The position numbers and the translations under genes are program-made. Under the pieces are notes generated by a model, which worked only from the letters and a program-made list of their open reading frames with translations, was not told the origin of the DNA and did no database searches. From Pseudomonadota bacterium (lineage in GTDB: Bacteria > Myxococcota_A > UBA9160 > SZUA-336), in contig QJZC01000025.1 in the NCBI GenBank assembly GCA_003247575.1, forward strand, positions 6,498 through 70,497: a DNA stretch of 64,000 nucleotides. Reading direction: 5' to 3'. Positions 1 through 20,624 of the stretch are shown here, piece by piece. The first letter of the stretch is position 1; every line of letters begins with the position of its first letter.

Positions 1-3000
1 GCGAGAGCTGTTCGAGCAGCAGCGACCGAACTCGGTCCTCCAGACTCTCCAGGGTCGGGTCGGTTCCCGGCTCTGTCGCTCGCATGCGCTGTGTCTCGAG
101 CCAACGCCGGCGGAATGCCAGTGGGATCCACAGCGCCCGGCCATCCGTCGATTCCGCGGGCTCTCCGGTCTCGCGCTCGACCCACTCGATCAGCCGGCGT
201 ACGGCACGCGCATCGTCGAGCGCGCCACGGACCTCGGGGAGATAGCGCCGCAATGCCTCGAGCTGAGCCCAGGACGGACCGTCCACGATCGAGGCGGCGA
301 GCGCCCAACAGCGGAGCGCTTCTCGAACGGTGTCTGCGGTGTCGTCGCCGACAGACGCGTCGCCGTCGCGAGGTGGCAGTGAGGGAAGCACTTGCTTGTC
401 GGGGGGTAGAGCGACCCCGGCCTCTCCGGAGAGGCGGCGGGCGAGCGCCTCGATGCCGCTCTCGTCGAGTGGAAACCGCGCCCAGCCGTGAGCGGCGAGC
501 GTCACGATCTCATCTTGATGCGCGGGCGTTCGTGCGCTGAGCTCGACCGGGTCGGGATCGATCCACGCGCGCTTGGGCCAGGCGGTCTCGAATGCGCACC
601 ACTCGGGTATGGCGCCCAGGCCGGCTCCCGGCGCGGACGCGAGGGAAAGGTTCCGAGAGAACACGATCAACGGAGCGCCGGCACTCTGCCGCGCGATCTC
701 GGCCACGCTCTTGGGCACCCCGGTCGCGGGATCGATCAGCACGTGCGGTGAGAAGCGGAAGTGGAGGCGTCGCATCTGCACGCCCGCGGCCTCCCAGGCA
801 TCGAGGAGGCGCTCGAATGGCCCCAACCACGGATGGTCACCGCGTTCGACGTCAATCCAGACGAATAGGGTTTGCGCAGCCGATGCGGCCGCGGTGTCCA
901 GAGGAGTGGACGCGGCGGTTGACGTCGCTACGTCGGCATCTGCGAGGTTTCCATCTGCTGCCTGCGTGGGGTCGCTACCGGACTCCAGCGTCGCGGCATC
1001 GCATGCGCGCCGTAGCCACACGGCCGTTGCCTCGATGGACGCGGGTTCGAGGGCCGCGCGCGGCTCGACCCCGAAGAGGGGGTGCCCTTCCTTCGCTCGG
1101 GAGACGCTGCTTCCTTCGAGCCCGGCGAGTTCCAGGCGGCGCACTCGTGCAAGTTCCCGCAGATGCGCGCTGCGTTCGTCCGCAAGTTGGTCGGGGAGCA
1201 GTAGCCAGCGCGCGCCCAAGAAGGTACCGATCGCGCTGAATGCAACGAGTGCGAACAAGAAGCCGTTCGAAGCCGGAGGAACGATCGGAGGACGGCGCTC
1301 CGAGATGCGGCTCAACACCGCATAGTGTTCAGTCTCCTCCGGCCCCAAGGGCCGAGCGGTCGGGGCGGCCTCCAACTCGGGAGTGGGGGCGCTGGCCCGG
1401 GTCGCAATTCCAAGCCAGAGCACGAGAGCGACGAGCACCGATCCGCCGGCGATCACACGCGCACTGCGGCCAGGAGCTGCGAGCCGACGGCCGGGTGCAC
1501 GCCTCGACGAAGCTGACTCCTGCGGGTTGCGGTGCGCAGCCGTCGACCCCTGGTTCGAATCCGTATCGATCTGGCCTGTGCGTGAAGAGGTTTGTTCGGT
1601 GACCCCCTCGCTACGAACCGGACTGAGTGCGAGCGCGTCCGCCTCGGAGCTACCGTGGGGAAGGCGTTCATCCAGGCACGCGACGAGATCTCGAAATCCG
1701 AGTGCCGGATCCCGCTGAAGGCGCAGAAACGTCGCGCGCAGATTCGCGCGCACCTGAGGGAGCAGAGGCTCTGGAATGGGGCGGCTCGCCAGGTACGCCT
1801 CCAGGTTCTCCCACTCTACCGTGCGCATGGGGGCGAGCACGGTATGCTTCGCTCTCAACGTGTGCGCAGCGGTCTCGAGCGCGCGACACACGCGCGCTTC
1901 GAACGTGCTTTCCGAGGTCACGCATTCCAGCGCAACCAGGATGCGCAGAGGATGAGACAGCTCCGCGGACTGGAACCGCTCTACGAGTCGCCCTTCGAGA
2001 AATGCACACAGGTCCCCGACGGCCTCGTCGCTCGCGAAGTCCGAACCACGAAGCTTGATGGTCAGGAAGACGCTGGCCTCGCGACTCGCTTCGCCGAGTG
2101 TGCAGACTGTGTCACCGGAGTCGTTCGGATCGTGCACTTGCCTCGCCGCGATCGATCGATTCCCAGCGGGCGAAGGGAGCGCATCCCGCAGCGCGCTCGT
2201 GAGAACCGCCTCCCACCCCTGTACACCCGTCGGATTGTTCGAGATGCCCGCCGGACCTCGAGTCCCTCCGCGGCTGGCCAGATGCACGATCCGGTGCTGC
2301 GGTACCGAGGTCGCTTCCGACAGGAAGCGATCCATTCGCATGAGCAACAGATCGATGTCGGACATGCGAGCCGCTCGGAGGACCAGAATGCTCGGGCCCG
2401 CGGCCTCACTCGCTGCACGGATCGACGCCCACTGCGGTTCGTGCGAGACGAGCAGCGCCGCGCCGTGATACGCGTCGGAGATGGTGCGAAACGTGTTGGC
2501 GGGCGCGGACGAGTCCTCGGTCTCTGGATCCGAGGAGCCGGAGACCGAGGAGCCAGAGCCCTTGGAAGGAAAGTTCGCGGCCGCTGAGGCTCGTGGCGCA
2601 CTGGTGGACACGAGCTGAATGCGCTGCGTCTCGGGGACGTCGGGCCAGAGGTCGAGCGAGGACGAGGCCTCGCCTCCACCGAGCTCGGACGTAGCCGCGG
2701 CGATTCGCGAGGCGCGCACTGCGGCCCCGAGGGAGCATCCAGTCGCGATGCTTCGGTACAGCGCGATCGAGTACTCGATCGGGTACGGTTCGACGGTCCT
2801 TCCTTCGGCTGCGATGAACGCTGGAGCGATCGGCTTGAGTTCCTCGATATCTACCTTGCCATAACAGCAATCGAGTACGAGCAGCCGTAGACCCGAATGT
2901 ACGCTCAACAGGTCGCGCAGTTCGCCTTTGCTGAGAGTGACCGGCCGCCCGGTACTCTGGTGCATCAGGATCACGCCCCCGTTGCTCCGGCCGTGCCCGC

Positions 3001-3199
3001 TCACGTGCAGGACGTCGGGCTCCAGCGCCTGCACCTGCTGCAGGAGATCTCGGGGCGCACAGGCTGGAAGATCATGGTACTCGAGCTCGTCTCGATAGGC
3101 GCCGAGCGCGAGCTTGAGTGCGTTGACCTGAATGTCTGCCGCGGTCTTCGCGGGGCCTGTCGGGTCCGACCAGACGTGAAGAATACGGAGTGGGCTCAT
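1..3199 (-). CDS. Caspase-like CHAT-domain protease, >1066 aa. The C-terminal part lies beyond the window start. Two predicted TM helices mid-protein.
   Basis: Hand translation of the minus strand from the ATG at 3199 gives an uninterrupted reading frame to position 1. The N-terminus carries a CHAT/caspase His-Cys dyad context: 'VLHVSGHG' and 'LRLLVLDCCYG'. Composition is protein-like, whereas the opposite strand gives only Arg-rich junk ORFs. It is absent from the ORF track because there is no stop inside the window. The start is uncertain: the frame stays open up to the SGNH stop at 3419 and contains an upstream GTG. Confidence 0.6.
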   Translation of the reverse strand, partial: MSPLRILHVWSDPTGPAKTAADIQVNALKLALGAYRDELEYHDLPACAPRDLLQQVQALEPDVLHVSGHGRSNGGVILMHQSTGRPVTLSKGELRDLLSVHSGLRLLVLDCCYGKVDIEELKPIAPAFIAAEGRTVEPYPIEYSIALYRSIATGCSLGAAVRASRIAAATSELGGGEASSSLDLWPDVPETQRIQLVSTSAPRASAAANFPSKGSGSSVSGSSDPETEDSSAPANTFRTISDAYHGAALLVSHEPQWASIRAASEAAGPSILVLRAARMSDIDLLLMRMDRFLSEATSVPQHRIVHLASRGGTRGPAGISNNPTGVQGWEAVLTSALRDALPSPAGNRSIAARQVHDPNDSGDTVCTLGEASREASVFLTIKLRGSDFASDEAVGDLCAFLEGRLVERFQSAELSHPLRILVALECVTSESTFEARVCRALETAAHTLRAKHTVLAPMRTVEWENLEAYLASRPIPEPLLPQVRANLRATFLRLQRDPALGFRDLVACLDERLPHGSSEADALALSPVRSEGVTEQTSSRTGQIDTDSNQGSTAAHRNPQESASSRRAPGRRLAAPGRSARVIAGGSVLVALVLWLGIATRASAPTPELEAAPTARPLGPEETEHYAVLSRISERRPPIVPPASNGFLFALVAFSAIGTFLGARWLLLPDQLADERSAHLRELARVRRLELAGLEGSSVSRAKEGHPLFGVEPRAALEPASIEATAVWLRRACDAATLESGSDPTQAADGNLADADVATSTAASTPLDTAAASAAQTLFVWIDVERGDHPWLGPFERLLDAWEAAGVQMRRLHFRFSPHVLIDPATGVPKSVAEIARQSAGAPLIVFSRNLSLASAPGAGLGAIPEWCAFETAWPKRAWIDPDPVELSARTPAHQDEIVTLAAHGWARFPLDESGIEALARRLSGEAGVALPPDKQVLPSLPPRDGDASVGDDTADTVREALRCWALAASIVDGPSWAQLEALRRYLPEVRGALDDARAVRRLIEWVERETGEPAESTDGRALWIPLAFRRRWLETQRMRATEPGTDPTLESLEDRVRSLLLEQLS

Positions 3200-3418: not shown

Positions 3419-4357
3419 TCACCCTCTCCTACTCCAACCGCTGGAATCCAACGAGAGCTCCCCCGACGAATGCCCGATCCGCGTGAGATCGATCGCGGGC
3501 GTGACGTCGATCCCGGCAGTGCCTTCGCGATGTCTGATGCGCGCCATCGCCTGCCGGGCGACTCTCCAGAGCGTAGCCTGTATCTCCGGGGCGATTGAGA
3601 CTCCGGGCACGACGATCTCCGTCGAGAGCTCGCGTGGCGCGATGGCGAGATAGACCACCGCAGCTTCGAGGTATGCGCCTTCCGGAGTCGTATGGTTCCC
3701 ATCGCGCTGGGTCATGTCGAGCTTCGTGGAGTCCTCTCGAATCAGACGGAACGCGAGTCCAACCGGCGCCACGCCGGCAGCGATCCGCCGCGAGAGCCGA
3801 AGCACATGTTCGGTCGATTGCCGCTCCTGTGCTCGAACCGATGCGGGCGTGCGCTCGGGATGATCAGGAGATTCCTCGTAGGCCCAGGCTCCCACCAAGA
3901 CGACGCGCGCACCCAGGGCGCGTGCCAGCCCAGCACAGTATCCCGCGTCTCTCGCGTATCGATCAGGATGGTAGTGGCTCTGAGCCGACTGCTCCTGGAG
4001 AACCACCACATCGAGGGGAGGTTCGAGCATCGCCGCAAAGAGTCCCAGCTCGCGATGCTGCTCGAGACTGAAGCCGGGACGCGCGATCCCTTCTATGAAG
4101 ATCGGAACGCCCGACGCGTCTCCCATCGCCTGCACGAGGTAGGGCACCTGATTCACGTAGGTATGGCTGTTGCCAACCCATGCGACTCGGAGGGCTTCGC
4201 TCGGAGCGCCGAGCCAATGATACGGCTTGAGCGCATGGCGAGGTCGCGACTTCTCGAGCAAGTGCTCCACACCGGGGGCGGCGACCACGCTCATTCCAAC
4301 GAGTAGGACGAGCAGGAGCGAGAGCCGGAGTTTCGGGACGATCACTGGATGAGTCAT
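3419..4357 (-). CDS. Secreted SGNH/GDSL-family hydrolase (DUF4886-like)
   Basis: ORF 3419..4450. Internal ATG at 4357 precedes a signal peptide (MTHPVIVPKLRLSLLLVLLVGMSVVAAP). Block I 'VAWVGNSHTY' and block V 'DGNHTTPEGAYLEAA' are typical of SGNH hydrolases. Confidence 0.6.
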   Translation of the reverse strand: MTHPVIVPKLRLSLLLVLLVGMSVVAAPGVEHLLEKSRPRHALKPYHWLGAPSEALRVAWVGNSHTYVNQVPYLVQAMGDASGVPIFIEGIARPGFSLEQHRELGLFAAMLEPPLDVVVLQEQSAQSHYHPDRYARDAGYCAGLARALGARVVLVGAWAYEESPDHPERTPASVRAQERQSTEHVLRLSRRIAAGVAPVGLAFRLIREDSTKLDMTQRDGNHTTPEGAYLEAAVVYLAIAPRELSTEIVVPGVSIAPEIQATLWRVARQAMARIRHREGTAGIDVTPAIDLTRIGHSSGELSLDSSGWSRRG

Positions 4358-4524
4358 GCGATCCCTCTGTCCACAAGCGAAGGCCCACCGCGCCTCGCGG
4401 ACGGCGCGAATGGACACGTACTCACCATCGTCGAATCTTTCACCTGACACTACGCCTCTCTTCGCATTCGAGCTGGATCCTGTCCACGTACGCTTCGGCG
4501 TCCCGAACCGCTCGATATCAACTT

Positions 4525-4800
4525 CTACGCTAGGCTACCCGCGAGGCTCCCCGGCCCCTGTAGCGGCTCCAATGCCCCCACGAGATCAGCGAGCCGTGCG
4601 ACGTCCAGTGAGGTCTCGAGGTCGAAGTGGACCACATGCTTGAAGCGGCCGGTGCGCTTCACTTGCCTGGCCAGAGTCGTCTTGCCGACCTGACGCGCTC
4701 TCACGACCGCCACCAGTGGAAGGCCCGTTGCAGCTTCTCGACTCGGGCCATTTCTGGAGGCAGCAACTCCATTTGTGAAATGCAGGAGTCTATCTCCTAA
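4525..4800 (-). pseudogene. N-terminal remnant (~90 codons) of an AAA_14/DUF4143-family ATPase. It is truncated after the Walker A region and has no proper start.
   Basis: 'LPLVAVVRARQVGKTTLARQV...HFDLETSLDVARLADLVGALEPLQG' matches the AAA_14 N-terminus (GPRQVGKTTL ... YFDLEDP..L). It is followed directly by a stop at 4525. The upstream frame opens after a TGA with no ATG/GTG/TTG before the P-loop. It abuts the GC drop of the island. Confidence 0.5.
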
Positions 4801-5096
4801 ATTTCAAAGAAAGCCGACCAGCTCCTGCCAGAACCTCACGGCCGACTTCAGCGTGGGAACAATCTCGGCGTCGGCACCTACCCTGGCTAGATGTAACAAC
4901 GTGGGTGGATTCAACAACGAGGATCTCGCAAACAGACTCCCCATCTCGAGAGTACAGGTCGGTCTGCGGCATCTGCCAAAAACTACGTCCATCGGAGCCT
5001 CAGTCGTGTGTATGATGAAAAAGTCGAGCCGGTCGTTCCATCCGGTCCGACGCCCAGAGCTTAGTCCCCCCTCAACTACGGTAGCAGGAGTCAAAA

Positions 5097-7292
5097 GTGG
5101 CAATCCTCGCGCTGAGTTCGGCCTGGGCAGGGCAACCTTCCGTTAGCCTACGAAGCCTAAGGGAATACCTGCTGGAGAATCTGCTCGCCGTCCTGCCCGA
5201 AGAAACACGCTCCGACTACTGCCTCATCCCCTATGTGCGTCATGTATTCGAAAGCCCGACGGACATCCCCGGGGGAGCCGGAGACAGGATCGGCATTCCG
5301 AATCGAGCGCCCACCCACTTCTGCTTTTCGGCAAGCGACGAAACCCTGCAATCCACGTTCGACACACGCATCGGTGAGTGCGCGATCAAGGGCTTCCGCA
5401 CCCTCCCATCGGTGCTCGACTCTCTCTATACCCCCAAGCAGCCCGACGCTCCCGCCCCGCTGAGCATCGCAATTACTCTGAGCTCGCCAGACGCCCCTAG
5501 TACCGACCGGAACCCTCCTCCTGGTGCGCCGCTCGATGCCCGGTTCCATGCCGAGCTGAGGATTCCCCGAAGCGGCGCCCTGGAGCAAGCATTGCGCGAT
5601 GTCAAGCAGATGTCCGATGTCGACGTATGGCACGGACTCTTCGATCCCAATCGAAGCTTGTACCAAAACCTGCACCTACACGCTCAGCAACTCTGCGAAG
5701 CTTTCGAGATCTCGCCAGGAATCATCGTTTATCAGTCCATCGTTGCGGCTATGTTCGATCAGATTCAAATCGCTTCCGTCTCTAGTAGCCTAGTGCACGC
5801 ACTGACGCTGTTCACTCGTTCGAGCGATCCTCTCAGCTTCGCAACTGGGGCGGTTCTCCTCTCAGCACACGCTGTTCGCAGCGGCGAGCGTCTCGAACTT
5901 GTCCGTATGCTGGAAGACGTGCACCAGAAGCTGTGCTCTCGTCCCGTCCGGCGGGATGTGCCGACGCCTGGTGTTCCTTCCTTCTCCGACACGGCCGCAC
6001 AGCAGATTCGCAAGCTTGAGGCGGTAGGTGAGCCGCCGGGCGATCAGCTGCGCGGCCCACCTTGGTCTATTTGCGAAACCATTCGCGATACGATGTGCAG
6101 ACTGGCGGGAATCGCAGAGGGAGACGATTCACTCGCGCGTCCGAGAACGCACGAAGGCGCGCGTCGCGACCCTATCGCGATGAGTGCGTTCCGGTTCCTT
6201 CATGCGTGCTCTGCCTTCTGCGACACGCGCTCGGAGGGAGTAGAGCTCGAATTCGGCTTCATGCTCGCGAACCCATTCTTGGTGCGGTATTGGCCAGGAG
6301 AGCGCCCCATTCCAATTGGCCGACTCAAGGACGGGGAGTATCAGCCGTTTCAGCTTTCTGCGCTATTGGGCCAGATTCCGGCGATCGAAAACCCGCGTCA
6401 ACGTTGCATCGCATTTCCCTACGGGGACACTCGCCTGGGAGACTCCAGGGCTCCATGTCCTGCCTATGTCATCAATCTCACTGACTTCCAGGAAGCGGTG
6501 GTCAGCTGGCCCGAGGGTAGGCTCTGGTCGTCGACTGGGGGAATCTATGCCTATCTCACCCATCACTATCCGTGGTCGATCGCGGCTCTCGTTGGTCCGG
6601 GATCACAAGTGCGTGTGTTCTGTGGCGGCCAGGTGGTCGCGTTTCGCGACGGGCGCGGTTGGCGATGTCGTGGCGACCCCGTTGCAGAATTCACCTCAGA
6701 AAAAATCTTGAGCGCTCGGGAAGCGAGACGCCTAGCACGCGCGCTGGAAGTCGCGAGTCAGCTCTCGCCGATCCTTAGAGCGACCGGTAGAGGCGGCCTG
6801 CTGGTCTACGCCGAGCAAAGGAGGTACCCCCCACCGAGTGGCTCGAACGGATCCCATGCCCAGGCTCCCCAGTCGGGCCTCTATCTACACACGCTTCATA
6901 ATGGCGAGCCTATGCGGCTCAACGGCCAACCCTGGCTCTCGGGCCGGAGCCTGCTCCGTCTTGACGCGGACTCGGAAGATTTCATCATCCGCTACGACGT
7001 AGCGCGCCTCTTGCTTCGCGCCGCCAAGATCGACGGGGCGGTATGCCTGAGCGAGGGAGCATCCGACGCCTACGACTGCCGGGTGCTCGACTTCGCCCAG
7101 TACCTGACGATCCACGATGCATCGGTTCCGATCTTCGATGCAGCCGGAGCGAAGCGGGCCACCGCTGAGAAGTTCACACAGTTTGCAGGCAGAGGAAGCT
7201 TCGCCATCGCGGTGTCGTCAGACGGCCCGATCAATGTCTACGTCGGAGGCGCCCGCTCCCCTAAACGGTGCTTCAATGAGGTCGTCAACTAA
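5097..7292 (+). CDS. Hypothetical 731-aa protein with a C-terminal divergent DisA_N/DAC (diadenylate-cyclase-like) domain; rest unknown
   Basis: GTG start with an AGGAG RBS 8 nt upstream. Residues ~612-722 align by eye to the DisA/CdaA DAC core: 'LLLRAAKIDGAVCLSEG' vs 'LYELAKMDGAIILSDSG' (DGA motif kept), and 'GAKRATAEKFTQFAGRGSFAIAVSSDGPINVYVGG' vs '[34 protein letters not shown]' (RHR replaced by KR-A). It lies in a ~55% GC island. Confidence 0.65.
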   Translation: MAILALSSAWAGQPSVSLRSLREYLLENLLAVLPEETRSDYCLIPYVRHVFESPTDIPGGAGDRIGIPNRAPTHFCFSASDETLQSTFDTRIGECAIKGFRTLPSVLDSLYTPKQPDAPAPLSIAITLSSPDAPSTDRNPPPGAPLDARFHAELRIPRSGALEQALRDVKQMSDVDVWHGLFDPNRSLYQNLHLHAQQLCEAFEISPGIIVYQSIVAAMFDQIQIASVSSSLVHALTLFTRSSDPLSFATGAVLLSAHAVRSGERLELVRMLEDVHQKLCSRPVRRDVPTPGVPSFSDTAAQQIRKLEAVGEPPGDQLRGPPWSICETIRDTMCRLAGIAEGDDSLARPRTHEGARRDPIAMSAFRFLHACSAFCDTRSEGVELEFGFMLANPFLVRYWPGERPIPIGRLKDGEYQPFQLSALLGQIPAIENPRQRCIAFPYGDTRLGDSRAPCPAYVINLTDFQEAVVSWPEGRLWSSTGGIYAYLTHHYPWSIAALVGPGSQVRVFCGGQVVAFRDGRGWRCRGDPVAEFTSEKILSAREARRLARALEVASQLSPILRATGRGGLLVYAEQRRYPPPSGSNGSHAQAPQSGLYLHTLHNGEPMRLNGQPWLSGRSLLRLDADSEDFIIRYDVARLLLRAAKIDGAVCLSEGASDAYDCRVLDFAQYLTIHDASVPIFDAAGAKRATAEKFTQFAGRGSFAIAVSSDGPINVYVGGARSPKRCFNEVVN

Positions 7293-7350
7293 CTCGTAGT
7301 GACGATCTCTTCGACTTACAAAGTAGCCTGTACGGAACGGAGATCGCAGA

Positions 7351-8475
7351 GTGACTCCCACCAAACCACCTCCCCAGAAAAAGAATGTCAGACGGACATC
7401 CAAGGGGAACGCAGCTTCCGGAGATGGACAAGAGCAGAAATGGATGACTCTGGAACAACAGAGTGACCTTCGGATCTTCATTAGCCACAAGGAGCAGAAC
7501 TCCGGGTACGCAGACGTGCTGTCACAGCATCTCAAGCTGTGGGGACTCGAAGGCGCCCAGATTATGCATACATCGGGCCCCAAGAGCCAAACGCAGGGTC
7601 CCGCGATCGGAGACGAACTGCTCGGCTTTCTGCGGGAGTTCCTGTGGGAATGCAACCTGGTCATCTACATCTACACCCACGCCAAGTTAAACTGGGAATG
7701 GTGCAACTATGAGCTGGGCGTAGCCGAGGATCGAAACACGCCAGCACGAATCGTGATCCTACAGATCTTCGAGGACGAACCCTCCGTACATCGTGATCTG
7801 CGCAGAATTCAGCTCGACAACGATCAAGACATACTGGACTTCGTGTTCGATTTTCATCGAATGCCGGATTTCTTCAAAGGTCTCCCAGGCTACTGGCAGC
7901 GCGACGACGAAACCCTGCGTCTCAATGCGAACGCGTTGATCGAAGCGCTCCGGGACGAGAAGGAGAAGGACCGCCTCGCCGAGGGGATCGAGCGAGAGGC
8001 CCGTTGGGGCTGTTTCCAACTGGGCATCGGCGGCGAGATTCTAGAACCCCTCCATGCTCGCTGGGACAAGGCTCTGACCGACGAGCGCGAGGCGATGCAG
8101 GAGGATCGGCGAGCGACGCTACGAGACAATCTCATCGTGACCGAGCGCGAGGGGTCCGGCCTCCACCACTTCGGGCTAGAGGGAGAAGGCAGCCGTATCC
8201 CCATCAAGCAACGATGGTCCGTCGGAAAGCTGGAATCGGAGTGGCGGAGCATCGTCCGGGTCCATCCTCAGGACTCCTGGCTGAACGAGCTACTCGACGA
8301 GATCTGGAGCTTTCTCGTCGGGCGGGCTAGACCGCTGCGGCTGAGGGGCTACCCCAGTGGTCAGCCTCACGTGTGCTTCGCTCCAGTGGTTACACATTGT
8401 GATCGGCACACCGATGGCAGTTGCGTGTTCAGTGTGGCGGTCTACACGTTTCGCGACGATCCCCCTATCGCATAG
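7351..8475 (+). CDS. TIR-domain protein (N-terminal TIR, C-terminal ~200-aa domain of unknown function)
   Basis: 'RIFISHKEQNSGYADVLSQHLKLWGL' (beta-A/alpha-A) and 'IGDELLGFLREFLWECNLVIYIYTHAKLNWEWCNYELGVAE' (the S..S.WC..E motif with the catalytic Glu at ~7711-7713) are diagnostic of bacterial TIR domains. GTG start at 7351 with a GGAG upstream. An alternative ATG at ~7444 sits just before the TIR. Confidence 0.7.
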   Translation: MTPTKPPPQKKNVRRTSKGNAASGDGQEQKWMTLEQQSDLRIFISHKEQNSGYADVLSQHLKLWGLEGAQIMHTSGPKSQTQGPAIGDELLGFLREFLWECNLVIYIYTHAKLNWEWCNYELGVAEDRNTPARIVILQIFEDEPSVHRDLRRIQLDNDQDILDFVFDFHRMPDFFKGLPGYWQRDDETLRLNANALIEALRDEKEKDRLAEGIEREARWGCFQLGIGGEILEPLHARWDKALTDEREAMQEDRRATLRDNLIVTEREGSGLHHFGLEGEGSRIPIKQRWSVGKLESEWRSIVRVHPQDSWLNELLDEIWSFLVGRARPLRLRGYPSGQPHVCFAPVVTHCDRHTDGSCVFSVAVYTFRDDPPIA

Positions 8476-8791
8476 GTCGTTCTCTACTCTCCGGTGAGGC
8501 TGGGAACGCACCCCGAGCCCCAGTCCGTGTGCCAATGGAGCGTGGAGAGTAGCTCACATGGTCGGCGCTCTCAGCTCGTTCCGTTCAAGGCACGTGGCGT
8601 TTGGCAACGGGGCACATCCCGGTGCGGGAGGATCGGACGGTTCTACAGTCGCCGGAGGACGGCGAAATCGATACCATCGGGCTCGACCGACGCCGTCGCT
8701 CCGCGATATCGCTCGCCCCATGTGATGCGGGAGCCGGCTGATCCCTCGGACTTTACTATCCGCTAGGCACGTTGGAGACCGCTGCTTCGCC

Positions 8792-16723: not shown

Positions 16724-18897
16724 ATGACCTCGCTTCACGACGTGCAGGCCCCCACTCCCACGAAAGCAGATCCCGAGGCCGATCTCTCGGAAGCGTACGA
16801 GCAGCTGACCGCGATGGGACAGCGTAAGCTGGGGCGGATTCCGCCGGAGCTCATGGCCGGCCACGTGATCGAGATCCATCGCGAAGCCCCCTGGGCGGTC
16901 AAACGCGCGGCGCTGGAGGCACTGCTGCGTCGCTTCGCGTTTGCACGGCGCGATGCGCTGCGCGTGGCGGAGCGTCCAGCGGGCGCGATTCCGTTTGGCC
17001 CCTATCGGACGCGCGCACATGGGGATGCACCGCGGCCGTATCGCACCTTGCTGCACTCGCTGACGCCGTTGGACGGGAGCTGCGATTGCCCCGATTTCTT
17101 GCGCGCGTCATTGGGCGTGTGCAAGCACCTGCTCGTGGTGATCGATGCGCTCGCATCGCAACCGCGCAAGCTGGAGCGCGGCCTGGGCGCAACAGCGACG
17201 ACGAACCCGCGTTGCGCGCGCTGCTCGGGGCGGAGCGGCAACAGCTGGAGTCGCAGCTCGACGCGCGTCGGGGGCGCAGGCCATCGCTGCGGGGCGTACG
17301 CCGCACGCTGTATGCCTATCAGAGAGAAGGCGTGGCCCGCTTCCTGACTGCAGAGCGCTTGTTGCTCGCCGATGACATGGGGCTAGGCAAGACGGTGCAA
17401 GCGGCGGCGGCATGCCACGCCCTGCATCGCTCGGGACACGTGCAACGGGGGCTCGTGATCACGCCGGCGAGTCTCAAGGGACAATGGAAGCACGAGTGGA
17501 ACGCGACCACCAAGATTCCGGTCGCCGTAGTCGATGGATCGCCAGCGGATCGAGCGCGGGCGTACGTCGAGACCACAGACGGATTCCTGATCGTGAACTA
17601 CGAACAGCTACTGCGCGACCTCGACGAGATTCTCGCTTGGGATCCGCAGATCGTGGTGCTCGATGAGGCGCAGCGCATCAAGAACTGGGCCACCAAGACG
17701 GCCACGTACGTGAAGCGACTCGAGCCGCGCTATCGATTGGTACTCACGGGGACACCGATGGAGAACCGGCTGGAAGAGCTGGCCTCGATCATGGACTGGG
17801 TCGATGATCACGCGCTCGAGCCGAAGTGGCGCTTGGCACCCCTGCATTCGGTGTCCGCCGATGGCGCGCGCGAGGTCGTGGGCGCGCGTCACTTGGGCAC
17901 CCTGCGGGAGCGGCTCGCGCCCAGCCTGTTGCGGCGCGTACGCAGCGACGTGCTGTCGCAGCTGCCTCCGCGCGATGCGCTGCTCCGCAGCCTATCCAGT
18001 CCCAAGCTCGCCGAGGCGCGAGCGCTGCTCTCGACACTGGCAATCGAGCAGGGCCGCAAGGTGGTGGTGTTCAGTCAGTGGCGCCGCATGCTGCAACTGG
18101 TGCACTGGGCAGTCGGCGATCTGCTGGATACCGCAGATGTACAAGCCATGTTCCTCACGGGTCGCGAGTCGTCCCGCCGGCGCACGCGCAATCTCGTCGA
18201 GTTTCACGACGATCCCAATGCGCGCATCCTGTTCGCAAGCGACGCGGGCGGGGTGGGACTCAACCTGCAGCGCGCCGCGAGCGCCTGCGTGTTGCTCGAT
18301 CTTCCCTGGAATCCAGCGGTGCTCGAACAGCGCGTCGGGCGCATCTACCGGCTCGGCCAGAAGCATCCGATCGATGTGTACAGCTTGGTGAGCAGTGACT
18401 CGATCGAGGAACGCATCGCCTCCTTGGTCGCGGACAAACGCGCGCTGTTCCGCGGCCTGTTCGATGGCACCGGCGACGACGTGCGCTTCGAGCGCTCGGG
18501 AAGCTTTCTGGACAAGGTCTCCAAGCTGATCGGAAACGAGGGGAACGCGCGCGCGGTGTCACCCGAAGCAGACGAGCTGGCAGACAAGGGCGAGGAAGCG
18601 GCCGAGGGCGAGTTCGAAGCTTGGCTGCGCGAAGAGGAGAAGGACGTTCGAGCCGATTACAGCGGGACATCGCTCGCTCCTCTGCCGCACTCGAGTACGG
18701 AGGACGAATCGGCCCAGCAAGCGTCCGGCGCCGCGTCGCCGGGACCGGCTGACCACGCGGGCGCGCCCCTGGGCGATGGAGGCGGTGCGCACGGGGAGCT
18801 CGCTGAGCACGGACCTTCGCTCGGTCGGCCCGAAGGCGAAGCGGTCGCAACCGATGTGCAGATCGGGGACTCTCGTGCGAATTCGTACGAACTTTGA
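16724..18897 (+). CDS. SNF2-family helicase with N-terminal SWIM zinc finger, interrupted by an apparent -1 frameshift near 17170-17200
   Basis: SWIM: 'CDCPDFLRASLGVCKHLLVV' (frame of ORF 16625..17347). SNF2: 'LYAYQREGVARF...ADDMGLGKTVQ', DEAQ box 'VLDEAQRIKN', and helicase-C 'DAGGVGLNLQ' (frame of ORF 17086..18897). The junction lies between '...ASQPRKLERGLGA' and 'DDEPALRALLGAE' within cgacgacgaa. Confidence 0.6.
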
Positions 18898-19023: not shown

Positions 19024-19368
19024 GTGACGCGACAGACCACGACTCTGCCCATCCCGGTTCGTCGGGCACTTCGCAAGCTCGGCCAGGACATTCGCGACGC
19101 GCGGCGCCGGCGCCGCATTCCCGTCGCCCTGATGGCCGAGCGCGCTTCGATCAGCCGCACCACACTGAACAAGGTCGAGAAGGGCGAGGCAGGTGTCTCG
19201 CTCGGCGTCTACGCGCGTGTCCTCTTCGTACTCGGCATGGAGGGACGCATCGGGGACCTCGTGGACGTTCGATCGGACACCATCGGTCTGGGACTCGAGG
19301 AGGAACGACTCCCACAGCGAATCCGCGGGTCGCGCGGCTCGCGCAAGGCCCAACGGGACTCCGGCTGA
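19024..19368 (+). CDS. hipB: HipB-like XRE HTH antitoxin
   Basis: 'RRRRIPVALMAERASISRTTLNKVEKGE' HTH. Its stop overlaps the hipA start. An AT-rich region with ATAT-N10-ATAT lies upstream. Confidence 0.75.
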   Translation: MTRQTTTLPIPVRRALRKLGQDIRDARRRRRIPVALMAERASISRTTLNKVEKGEAGVSLGVYARVLFVLGMEGRIGDLVDVRSDTIGLGLEEERLPQRIRGSRGSRKAQRDSG

Positions 19369-20624
19369 TGGACCGCGGCGTGTGGGTCTATGTCGATCTC
19401 GAGCAAGAGACGAGGCTGGCGGGCCGTCTCTGGACTCGTTCGCGCAGAGGTCAAGAGAGCGCGAGCTTCGAGTACGATCGGCACTGGCTGGCCGATTCGC
19501 AGACGCGCTTCGCCCTCGAGCCGGCCCTCGCGCTGGATCCGGGTCCATTCCACACGCCGGGTGACCGGTCGATGTTCGGAGCGATCGGAGATTCCGCCCC
19601 GGATCGCTGGGGACGGGCATTGATGCGGCGCGCAGAGCGTCGCCGTGCGGCGCTCGCCGGAGAGGCCCCACGGGCCCTCTCCGAGGTTGACTACGTACTT
19701 CGCGTCAGCGATTTCGCGCGCCAGGGGGCGCTGCGCTTCGCGCTCGAGCAGGGCGGCGGCTTCATAGCGTCCAATGAGGAGCAACCCATTCCACCGTTGA
19801 TCGCACTTCCGCGGCTGTTGGCTGCGGCCGATCACGTGGCCGACGACTCCGATGACGACGAGGATCTTCGGATGCTCTTGGCTCCGGGCTCGTCGCTCGG
19901 CGGTGCTCGCCCCAAGGCCTCAGTCATCGATCGCGAGGGGAGACTATGCATTGCAAAGTTTCCCCATCGGAGCGACGAGCTCGACACCGTCCGGTGGGAG
20001 GCTGTCGCACTGCAGCTTGCCGAGCGCGCGGGAATCGCCGTCGCGACCTTCCGACTCGAGGCGGTGGCTGAGCGCCCGGTACTTCTACTACAGCGATTCG
20101 ATCGTGACGATGCCAAGCGCGTTCCCTTTCTATCTGCGATGAGCATGCTCGGGGCAAGCGATGGTGAGGTTCACTCCTATCTCGAACTGGTCGACGCGCT
20201 GCGCCGGTACGGGGCGGCGCCCGAGGCGGACATGCGCGCGCTCTGGCGGCGGATCGTGTTCAGCGTGCTGATCTCGAACACGGACGACCATTTGCGTAAT
20301 CACGGGTTCTTGTATCGATCTCCTTCGGGATGGCGGCTCTCTCCGGCCTACGACTTGAACCCCGTACCGACCGACATCAAACCCCGGTTGCTCTCCACTG
20401 CCATCGATCTCGACGACACGACCGCTTCGCTGGAACTGGCGTACGAGGTCGCGCCTTACTTCGAGCTCGATGGGAAGAGTGCAGAAGCAATCGTTCGGGA
20501 GGTGGGTCGCGTCGTGGCAGACTGGAGAGCGACCGCGGTTCGGCTCGGGCTTTCTCGCAGCGAGATCGACCGCATCGCCTCGGCCTTCGAACACGAAGAC
20601 CTGGAGGCGACGCGTCGCACGTGA
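19368..20624 (+). CDS. hipA: HipA-family Ser/Thr kinase toxin
   Basis: HipA_N/C organisation. Catalytic 'SNTDDHLRNHGFLY' and 'SLGGARPKASV' motifs. Confidence 0.85.
   Translation: MDRGVWVYVDLEQETRLAGRLWTRSRRGQESASFEYDRHWLADSQTRFALEPALALDPGPFHTPGDRSMFGAIGDSAPDRWGRALMRRAERRRAALAGEAPRALSEVDYVLRVSDFARQGALRFALEQGGGFIASNEEQPIPPLIALPRLLAAADHVADDSDDDEDLRMLLAPGSSLGGARPKASVIDREGRLCIAKFPHRSDELDTVRWEAVALQLAERAGIAVATFRLEAVAERPVLLLQRFDRDDAKRVPFLSAMSMLGASDGEVHSYLELVDALRRYGAAPEADMRALWRRIVFSVLISNTDDHLRNHGFLYRSPSGWRLSPAYDLNPVPTDIKPRLLSTAIDLDDTTASLELAYEVAPYFELDGKSAEAIVREVGRVVADWRATAVRLGLSRSEIDRIASAFEHEDLEATRRT

Follow-up and report, generated by a model that had tools for sequence, protein, structure and literature searches.

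Diadenylate cyclases (DACs) have long been regarded as housekeeping synthases of cyclic di-AMP (c-di-AMP), and the censuses of these enzymes have been built on the Pfam DisA_N model. Here we analyse two neighbouring genes, a DAC-like gene (A) and a TIR-domain gene (B), which lie in a lower-GC islet of a 64,000-nucleotide stretch of bacterial DNA (the window; GenBank assembly GCA_003247575.1, contig QJZC01000025.1, positions 6,498 to 70,497) and which an earlier note, made from the sequence alone, had proposed to be an undescribed two-gene defence module. We find that gene A represents a new, unmodelled and rare family with the DAC fold, which combines an altered catalytic motif with sensor-like domains and occurs in two distinct genomic contexts. 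The proposed module is unsupported as a conserved system and stands as a hypothesis about a single instance.

Two preprints of August 2026 report that DAC domains act in anti-phage defence. In Panoptoo/PanDA, minimal PanS DACs are combined with PanE effectors of the two-transmembrane (2TM)-beta type, and CdaG/DS-2C, a protein of about 550-575 amino acids with the domain order DACNG-DACNH-DAC, is associated with the cyclic oligonucleotide-based antiphage signalling system (CBASS) and makes c-di-AMP in vitro, its DACNH domain being reported as a catalytically dead distant relative of the DAC domain (2026 preprints). The protection that CBASS-DAC gives E. coli depends on the DAC (2026 Nucleic Acids Research paper), and in Haloferax the host DAC, DacZ, supplies the c-di-AMP that activates a TIR-SAVED effector (bioRxiv 2025.06.19.660554). 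Because of these published DAC defence systems and the c-di-AMP-driven TIR-SAVED effector, a link from a DAC to a TIR protein is mechanistically plausible and partly anticipated. The novelty claimed for the islet is in part outdated by these publications of 2025-2026. No operon in which a DAC-fold protein is encoded next to a TIR protein was found described in the literature.

A DAC-fold family that largely escapes the DisA_N model

Gene A (5097..7292, + strand) starts at a GTG codon and encodes 731 amino acids, for which no match was found among the Pfam, NCBIfam, PADLOC and PHROG models; the Pfam DAC model (PF02457) gave nothing at E<=0.1 when set against the window protein. Word-indexed homologue searches, whether made with A or with the A family profile, returned the query alone. 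Only when 1.84 billion cluster representatives were scanned in full with HMMER did a family emerge. Its 58 clusters share 28-41% identity with A, most have lengths of 650-890 amino acids, and the best-conserved part corresponds to residues 356-731. Among 48 members examined, 46 lack any Pfam match and two are detected by the Pfam DAC model, weakly (best E 5.1e-5). The profile of these 48 members nevertheless reaches T. maritima DisA in the PDB (E 3.3e-4), with LDGAIvL of the family aligned to MDGAIVL and GGTKRaTAE to GETGTRHRTAE. The AlphaFold 2 (AF2) model of A is confident over its whole length (pLDDT 85.4, pTM 0.90), and residues 546-731 (6732..7292, +) adopt the alpha/beta fold of DAC domains, although Foldseek returned nothing significant against either the PDB or viral structures. 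Fold, DGA motif and family profile match to DisA thus bear out the DAC-like C-terminal domain that the earlier note had recognised by eye. Upstream of it, residues 1-545 (5097..6731, +) form N-terminal and middle alpha/beta domains that resemble GAF or LuxR-type ligand-binding domains. Comparison of the A family with the 22 DAC families of Galperin's 2023 census was made through the Pfam models and through the account of that census in the 2026 preprints.

Two other assignments for the protein upstream of the DAC-like domain were considered and set aside. The middle domain contains strings that look like degenerate DAC motifs (AALVGPGSQVRVF and AIAVSSDGPINVY), as might be expected of a tandem DAC, but hhalign gave this relationship a probability below 1%. 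Residues 410-493 show a marginal similarity to trypsin-like proteases, in their C-terminal barrel (E 0.011; GDS against GDSGGP), which disagrees with the structural model and was judged to be due to chance.

The DAC-like domain of A keeps one motif of the canonical active site and alters another. Its DGA motif, Asp646-Gly647-Ala648 (7032..7040, +), aligns with DGA of DisA, while at the position of GTRHRTAE in DisA the canonical G-T-R-H-R is replaced by G-A-K-R (7146..7157, +); the R-H-R of the active site is thus absent, and the family carries K-R-x in its stead. On the strand that follows the motif helix lies a conserved S-S-D-G-P motif (7215..7229, +), which is probably the counterpart of the VSEETG/VSRRR segment of canonical DACs. 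Asp646, Gly647, Gly684, Ser707 and Gly710 are invariant in 48/48 family members, and conservation is high at Asp709 (46/48), Lys686 (45/48), Ala648 (44/48) and Thr685 (41/48) and lower at Arg687 (34/48). The window copy itself departs from the family consensus G-T-K-R-x, as it reads G-A-K-R-A, with Ala in the position of Thr685 (2/48 in the family), and has a 5-residue insertion directly after DGA (4/48). The strong purifying selection evident at these motif positions suggests that the nucleotide site of the family is functional, be it for making c-di-AMP, for making another product or for binding alone. Because the family retains the fold and the DGA aspartate, replaces R-H-R and largely escapes the Pfam DisA_N model, it may constitute a branch of the nucleotide-signal synthases whose product or regulation differs.

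Gene B and the partners of A relatives

Gene B (7351..8475, +) also begins with GTG and encodes an orphan TIR-domain protein of 374 amino acids; an alternative ATG start at 7444 would give 343 amino acids, and the database version of the protein begins at Met32 with that length. The TIR domain (residues ~37-171; 7459..7863, +) was delimited from a match to Pfam TIR_2 (PF13676) of 24.7 bits (E 3.5e-5; below the gathering score of 28) that covers profile positions 1-110 of 122, from PADLOC matches to spbK (3.6e-8) and to several ThsB models (best 4.3e-5), and from a phmmer alignment to SpbK (PDB 9phb), which places Glu121 of WCNYEL (codon 7711..7713, +) on the Glu of CLNEMG. The position of the catalytic Glu in TIR NADases is well established, and by this analogy Glu121 is the candidate catalytic residue of B. 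Residues ~190-374 (7918..8472, +), which lie outside the TIR match, constitute a C-terminal domain with no match in Pfam, PADLOC, NCBIfam, PHROG or the PDB, and the single-sequence AF2 model of B was unusable (pLDDT 36). The protein is thus much as the earlier note had drawn it, a TIR domain with its Glu intact joined to a C-terminal domain of ~200 amino acids of unknown kind, and PADLOC placed neither A nor B in a known system, in agreement with the expectation stated there. Apart from B itself, no relative was found in a word-indexed search of 5.8 billion proteins or among plasmids, phages and viral contigs; the sensitivity of the word-indexed search is limited, as it also missed the A family that the full HMMER scan brought to light.

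Whether A and B recur together was examined at 17 loci that carry A relatives, drawn from 3 species-representative genomes, 4 metagenome contigs and 10 contigs retrieved by exact look-up. None of the 17 has a TIR gene beside the A relative, as judged from precomputed Pfam annotation and reading of the open reading frames (ORFs), and a phmmer search with B through the ORFs of the 17 loci in all six frames found no B-like ORF. Co-occurrence of the pair in other genomes, on which the proposal of a module turned, was therefore not seen, and B has no detectable relative in the searches made through which it could be approached from the other side. In view of these 17 loci and of the different conserved partners that A relatives have elsewhere, the A family is without a conserved TIR partner, and part of A's own clade behaves as accessory cargo borne on islands.

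The first of these other contexts is an apparent operon that encodes, in order, a family-3 solute-binding protein, a permease, an ATP-binding cassette (ABC) ATPase, the A homologue as fourth gene, and a heme-oxygenase-like iron enzyme of ~210 amino acids (PF14518). It is found at four loci (L002, 3950-8792; L003, 5651-10627; L005, 214-5312; L006, 71-2291), and in a rough neighbour-joining (NJ) tree the A proteins encoded there branch off as a clade of their own. This arrangement suggests that the DAC-like protein is linked to an amino-acid-like compound, through its uptake or its oxidation.

The window protein clusters elsewhere in the same rough tree, with P0003, P0004, P0005, P0010, P0011 and P0012. 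Just after the genes for P0003, P0004, P0005 and P0013, the last of which falls outside this cluster, lies a convergent gene of 82-105 amino acids without a Pfam match (L008, 2806-3123(-); L009, 3521-3778(-); L010, 2245-2556(-); L016, 6204-6452(-)). The four small genes share a common ancestry: BLASTP relates three of them at 1e-14 to 1e-18, and the hidden Markov model (HMM) of these three finds the fourth at E 7e-4. By eye, they share a winged-helix-like motif, LF.RGFL....Y.SLTP.G. In the window the corresponding position is taken by gene B, and the HMM finds no match there or elsewhere in the stretch. At one locus (L015; GCA_030428945.1, 6784-15543) the A homologue sits on an island resembling an integrative and conjugative element, with relaxase, NikA, ArdC, YhcG, NERD and integrase genes, and is directly adjoined, in convergent orientation, by a complete type II CBASS comprising a CD-NTase, an E1/E2-like protein, a JAB protein and a lipase-SAVED protein, an arrangement that recalls CBASS-DAC. 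Another A relative (L016) is located downstream of an integrase and a FitA-PIN pair, and two more (L011 and L017) are near insertion sequence elements; still others have housekeeping neighbours, for example MreCD or SpoIIE/nitroreductase.

The islet, its surroundings and competing readings

The islet (4745..8490) is the lowest-GC stretch of the window, at 59.2% GC against a mean of 64.9% (standard deviation 2.0, minimum 61.1%) for the other windows of the same size. The contrast amounts to about 5-6 points, and the lowest 500-nucleotide window of the region reaches 54% between flanks of 62-70%. The dip on which the earlier note built is accordingly real, but the 12-20 points claimed for it overstate its depth, and the flanks are not a uniform 70%. 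GC at third codon positions is 0.67 in gene A and 0.70 in gene B, compared with 0.71-0.80 in neighbouring genes. As that note had described, the two ORFs run in the same orientation (+), 58 nucleotides apart. The spacer (7293..7350, +) contains the GGAG that precedes the GTG of B; Shine-Dalgarno-like sequences, AGGAG and GGAG, are found 6-8 nucleotides 5′ of the two starts, and GC by codon position follows a coding pattern in exactly the frames of A and B. No direct or inverted repeats were found flanking the islet, and a promoter/terminator scan, its counts being at chance level, placed no terminator-like site between A and B. We read the islet, with about even confidence, as a small horizontally acquired patch of DNA holding two accessory genes that are neighbours without being a conserved system.

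Its surroundings are those of an ordinary chromosome with a small variable patch, and no large defence island is present. Immediately upstream, between a gene with a weak DUF4886 match and gene A, lies a frameshifted fragment of the N-terminal part of a P-loop ATPase (4525..4772, - strand; AAA_14/DUF4143-like by eye), the truncated ATPase gene of the earlier note; its translation, MELLPPEMARVEKLQRA, shifts frame to LPLVAVVRARQVGKTTLARQ... and then meets a stop, with a Walker A motif of RQVGKTT. The fragment indicates local gene decay or a history of insertion. The adjoining gene (3419-4450, -) had been called an SGNH hydrolase, a name to which only the DUF4886 match (E 1.4e-4) corresponds, with a PDB relative of unknown function. 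The large ORF that runs off the start of the window (2-3199, -; more than 1066 amino acids) does have, near its N terminus, the caspase/CHAT-like His...Cys dyad (HVSGHG...LDCCYG) expected of the CHAT protease named there, but it has no Pfam or PADLOC match, and its sole PDB match, to the CHAT protein 8tl0, is non-significant (E 0.52). Downstream follow genes for a Cof-type HAD hydrolase, a DUF1287 protein, a HEAT-repeat protein, an alpha/beta hydrolase, an ammonium transporter and a Ser/Thr kinase, together with those for an SNF2 helicase, HipA, HflX and a hybrid histidine kinase. With these ordinary chromosomal genes on its downstream side, the defence-island context that had been suggested is weak, and near A in the window Pfam and PADLOC showed neither a SMODS/CD-NTase nor a patatin or 2TM gene. 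The SNF2-family helicase (17086-18897) and the HipA-type kinase (19368-20624) lie ~9-12 kb downstream of the islet.

The reading that we favour, again at about even weight, is that A and B are accessory genes that function independently of each other. On this reading A, a member of the new DAC-like family, would synthesise a nucleotide signal under the control of a ligand. Its upstream GAF/LuxR-type domains would read a small-molecule or protein cue, and two DAC domains would pair head-to-head so that the DGA aspartate and the K-R pair bind and join nucleoside triphosphates. The product would be c-di-AMP or a nucleotide related to it, which might be non-canonical. At other loci the family would act with different partners or alone. 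B would act by itself, as do the TIR abortive-infection proteins of the SpbK type, which are encoded by a single gene, with the C-terminal domain as sensor and the TIR domain as NAD+-cleaving output. In favour of this reading we count the fold and motifs of A, the rarity of its unmodelled family, the lack of a TIR or B-like neighbour at the 17 loci and the different conserved partners found there. To these come the closest resemblance of B, which is to single-protein TIR defence proteins (PADLOC spbK) and which goes along with an extra domain of its own, as well as the atypical active-site motifs of the window copy of A and the ordinary character of the downstream genes.

Several observations weigh against independence. 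The co-orientation, the 58-nucleotide gap without a terminator-like site and the common GC dip fit a single transcription unit that was acquired as a whole. Many contigs with A relatives are only 3-7 kb long, so that more distant partners would escape, and the usual partners of B could not be checked, its relatives not having been found. A's own clade is on mobile or defence islands at several loci. Effector swapping is common in systems of this kind, which makes a unique pairing compatible with coupling. Finally, DAC enzymes are known synthases of defence signals, and the TIR-SAVED effector can be driven by c-di-AMP.

These points lend themselves to a CBASS-like module, the main rival, which we regard as possible rather than probable. 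Here A would sense infection through its GAF-like domains and make a DAC-type nucleotide, the C-terminal domain of B would bind this nucleotide, and B would oligomerise, its TIR domain depleting NAD+ in abortive infection. Besides the shared orientation, spacer and GC dip and the occasional presence of A's clade on mobile or defence islands, such a module would profit from the DAC fold of A with its invariant DGA, from the Glu motif of B together with an extra domain of a size fitting a receptor, and from the precedents of CBASS-DAC and PanS/PanE, in which DAC products are immune signals, and of TIR-SAVED with c-di-AMP. The pairing has been seen once, however, with a TIR or other recognisable effector in the same position at 0/17 related loci, and the closest A relatives carry the small convergent gene instead. 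Moreover, the canonical R-H-R is absent, the window copy is without the conserved Thr as well, and the C-terminal domain of B matches no known nucleotide receptor (SAVED, STING or CARF). Slightly more doubtful is a version of coupling in which the islet would be a new defence module. Its DAC-fold synthase, regulated through GAF domains and non-canonical in having DGA with K-R instead of R-H-R, would make a signal, possibly not c-di-AMP, to be read by a new receptor domain fused to a TIR NADase; the A family more broadly would be an unrecognised DAC branch recruited to immunity or to the control of an amino-acid-type importer and a di-iron oxidase operon.

The islet might also be decaying cargo, one or both genes being non-functional remnants of an old insertion. 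The frameshifted ATPase fragment next to it shows that genes do decay locally, the window copy of A carries rare motif changes (T685A and the insertion after DGA), and B has no relatives. Since both ORFs are intact, with coding-type GC by codon position and good ribosome-binding sites, and the AF2 model of A folds confidently from end to end, we consider decay very unlikely. A guard mechanism of the Panoptes/Panoptoo kind, in which a decoy nucleotide made constitutively by A would hold the TIR domain of B off until a phage sponge or nuclease removed the nucleotide and so released B, has the working example of PanS DACs with PanE and the same order of synthase and effector. It is very unlikely for this islet, given that PanS proteins are minimal DACs of ~150 amino acids paired with 2TM-beta effectors in >90% of cases, that the large sensor-like domains of the 731-residue A argue for regulated over constitutive synthesis, and that the A-B pairing is not conserved. 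Least likely of all is a reversed, Thoeris-like arrangement in which B, as a ThsB-like protein, would make an NAD-derived signal on infection and A, as a ThsA-like effector, would bind it through GAF- or DAC-like domains, for despite the weak matches of B to several PADLOC ThsB models (best 4.3e-5) and a gene order, large multi-domain protein then TIR gene, like that of thsA-thsB, A has no ThsA model match, no SIR2, Macro, SLOG or transmembrane effector domain and no recognisable toxic output domain, and its relatives occur without TIR.

What follows from the islet depends on which reading is right. If A and B work together, they would add a TIR effector, one that carries a new receptor domain, to the DAC-based immunity described in 2026; should they act separately, as we favour, the islet illustrates that an attractive juxtaposition of domains seen once is no system. 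The ABC importer/heme-oxygenase-like operon and the mobile-island copies of the A family offer two hypotheses on what DAC-type signals control outside Firmicutes and Actinobacteria.

Comparison with described systems

Canonical DACs (DisA, CdaA, CdaM/DacM; PF02457) differ from A chiefly at the active site, where they have R-H-R in place of the K-R-x of the A family and the A-K-R-A of the window copy, and a SEETG/SRRR segment in place of SSDGP. In addition, the upstream domains of A match no described DAC N-terminal domain model. CBASS-DAC and CdaG are closer in general plan, because A too is a large multi-domain DAC protein with a link to defence islands, as seen in the L015 relative beside CBASS, and shares with CdaG the presence of non-catalytic alpha/beta domains upstream of the DAC domain. 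Unlike CdaG, which keeps select DGA/RHR residues and makes c-di-AMP, A lacks R-H-R, and it has no DACNG or DACNH Pfam match. In contrast to CBASS-DAC, the window contains neither a CD-NTase nor a patatin or 2TM effector, and the L015 relative is convergent to its CBASS operon and stands outside it. With Panoptoo/PanDA the islet has in common the two-gene layout of a DAC-fold synthase followed by an effector, and a GC content below that of the host was noted there as well. However, PanS is a protein of ~150 amino acids without sensor domains, whereas A has 731 amino acids and two extra domains, and PanE is a membrane beta-barrel protein (2TM-beta), whereas B is a soluble TIR protein with no predicted 2TM-beta architecture.

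On the side of the effector, Thoeris differs from the islet in that no thsA partner is present, A having no ThsA-type match in PADLOC or Pfam. The matches of B to ThsB and SpbK are restricted to the TIR core, and its C-terminal domain resembles neither protein. B is like SpbK in that a TIR domain with the conserved Glu motif and one extra domain are combined in a single protein, although the TIR domain is N-terminal in B and C-terminal in SpbK. TIR-SAVED relies on DacZ, a housekeeping enzyme encoded elsewhere, and on a SAVED receptor, for which B shows no match. Even so, TIR-SAVED shows that a DAC product is able to drive a TIR NADase effector, and A and B, were they coupled, would be expected to work by the very same logic.

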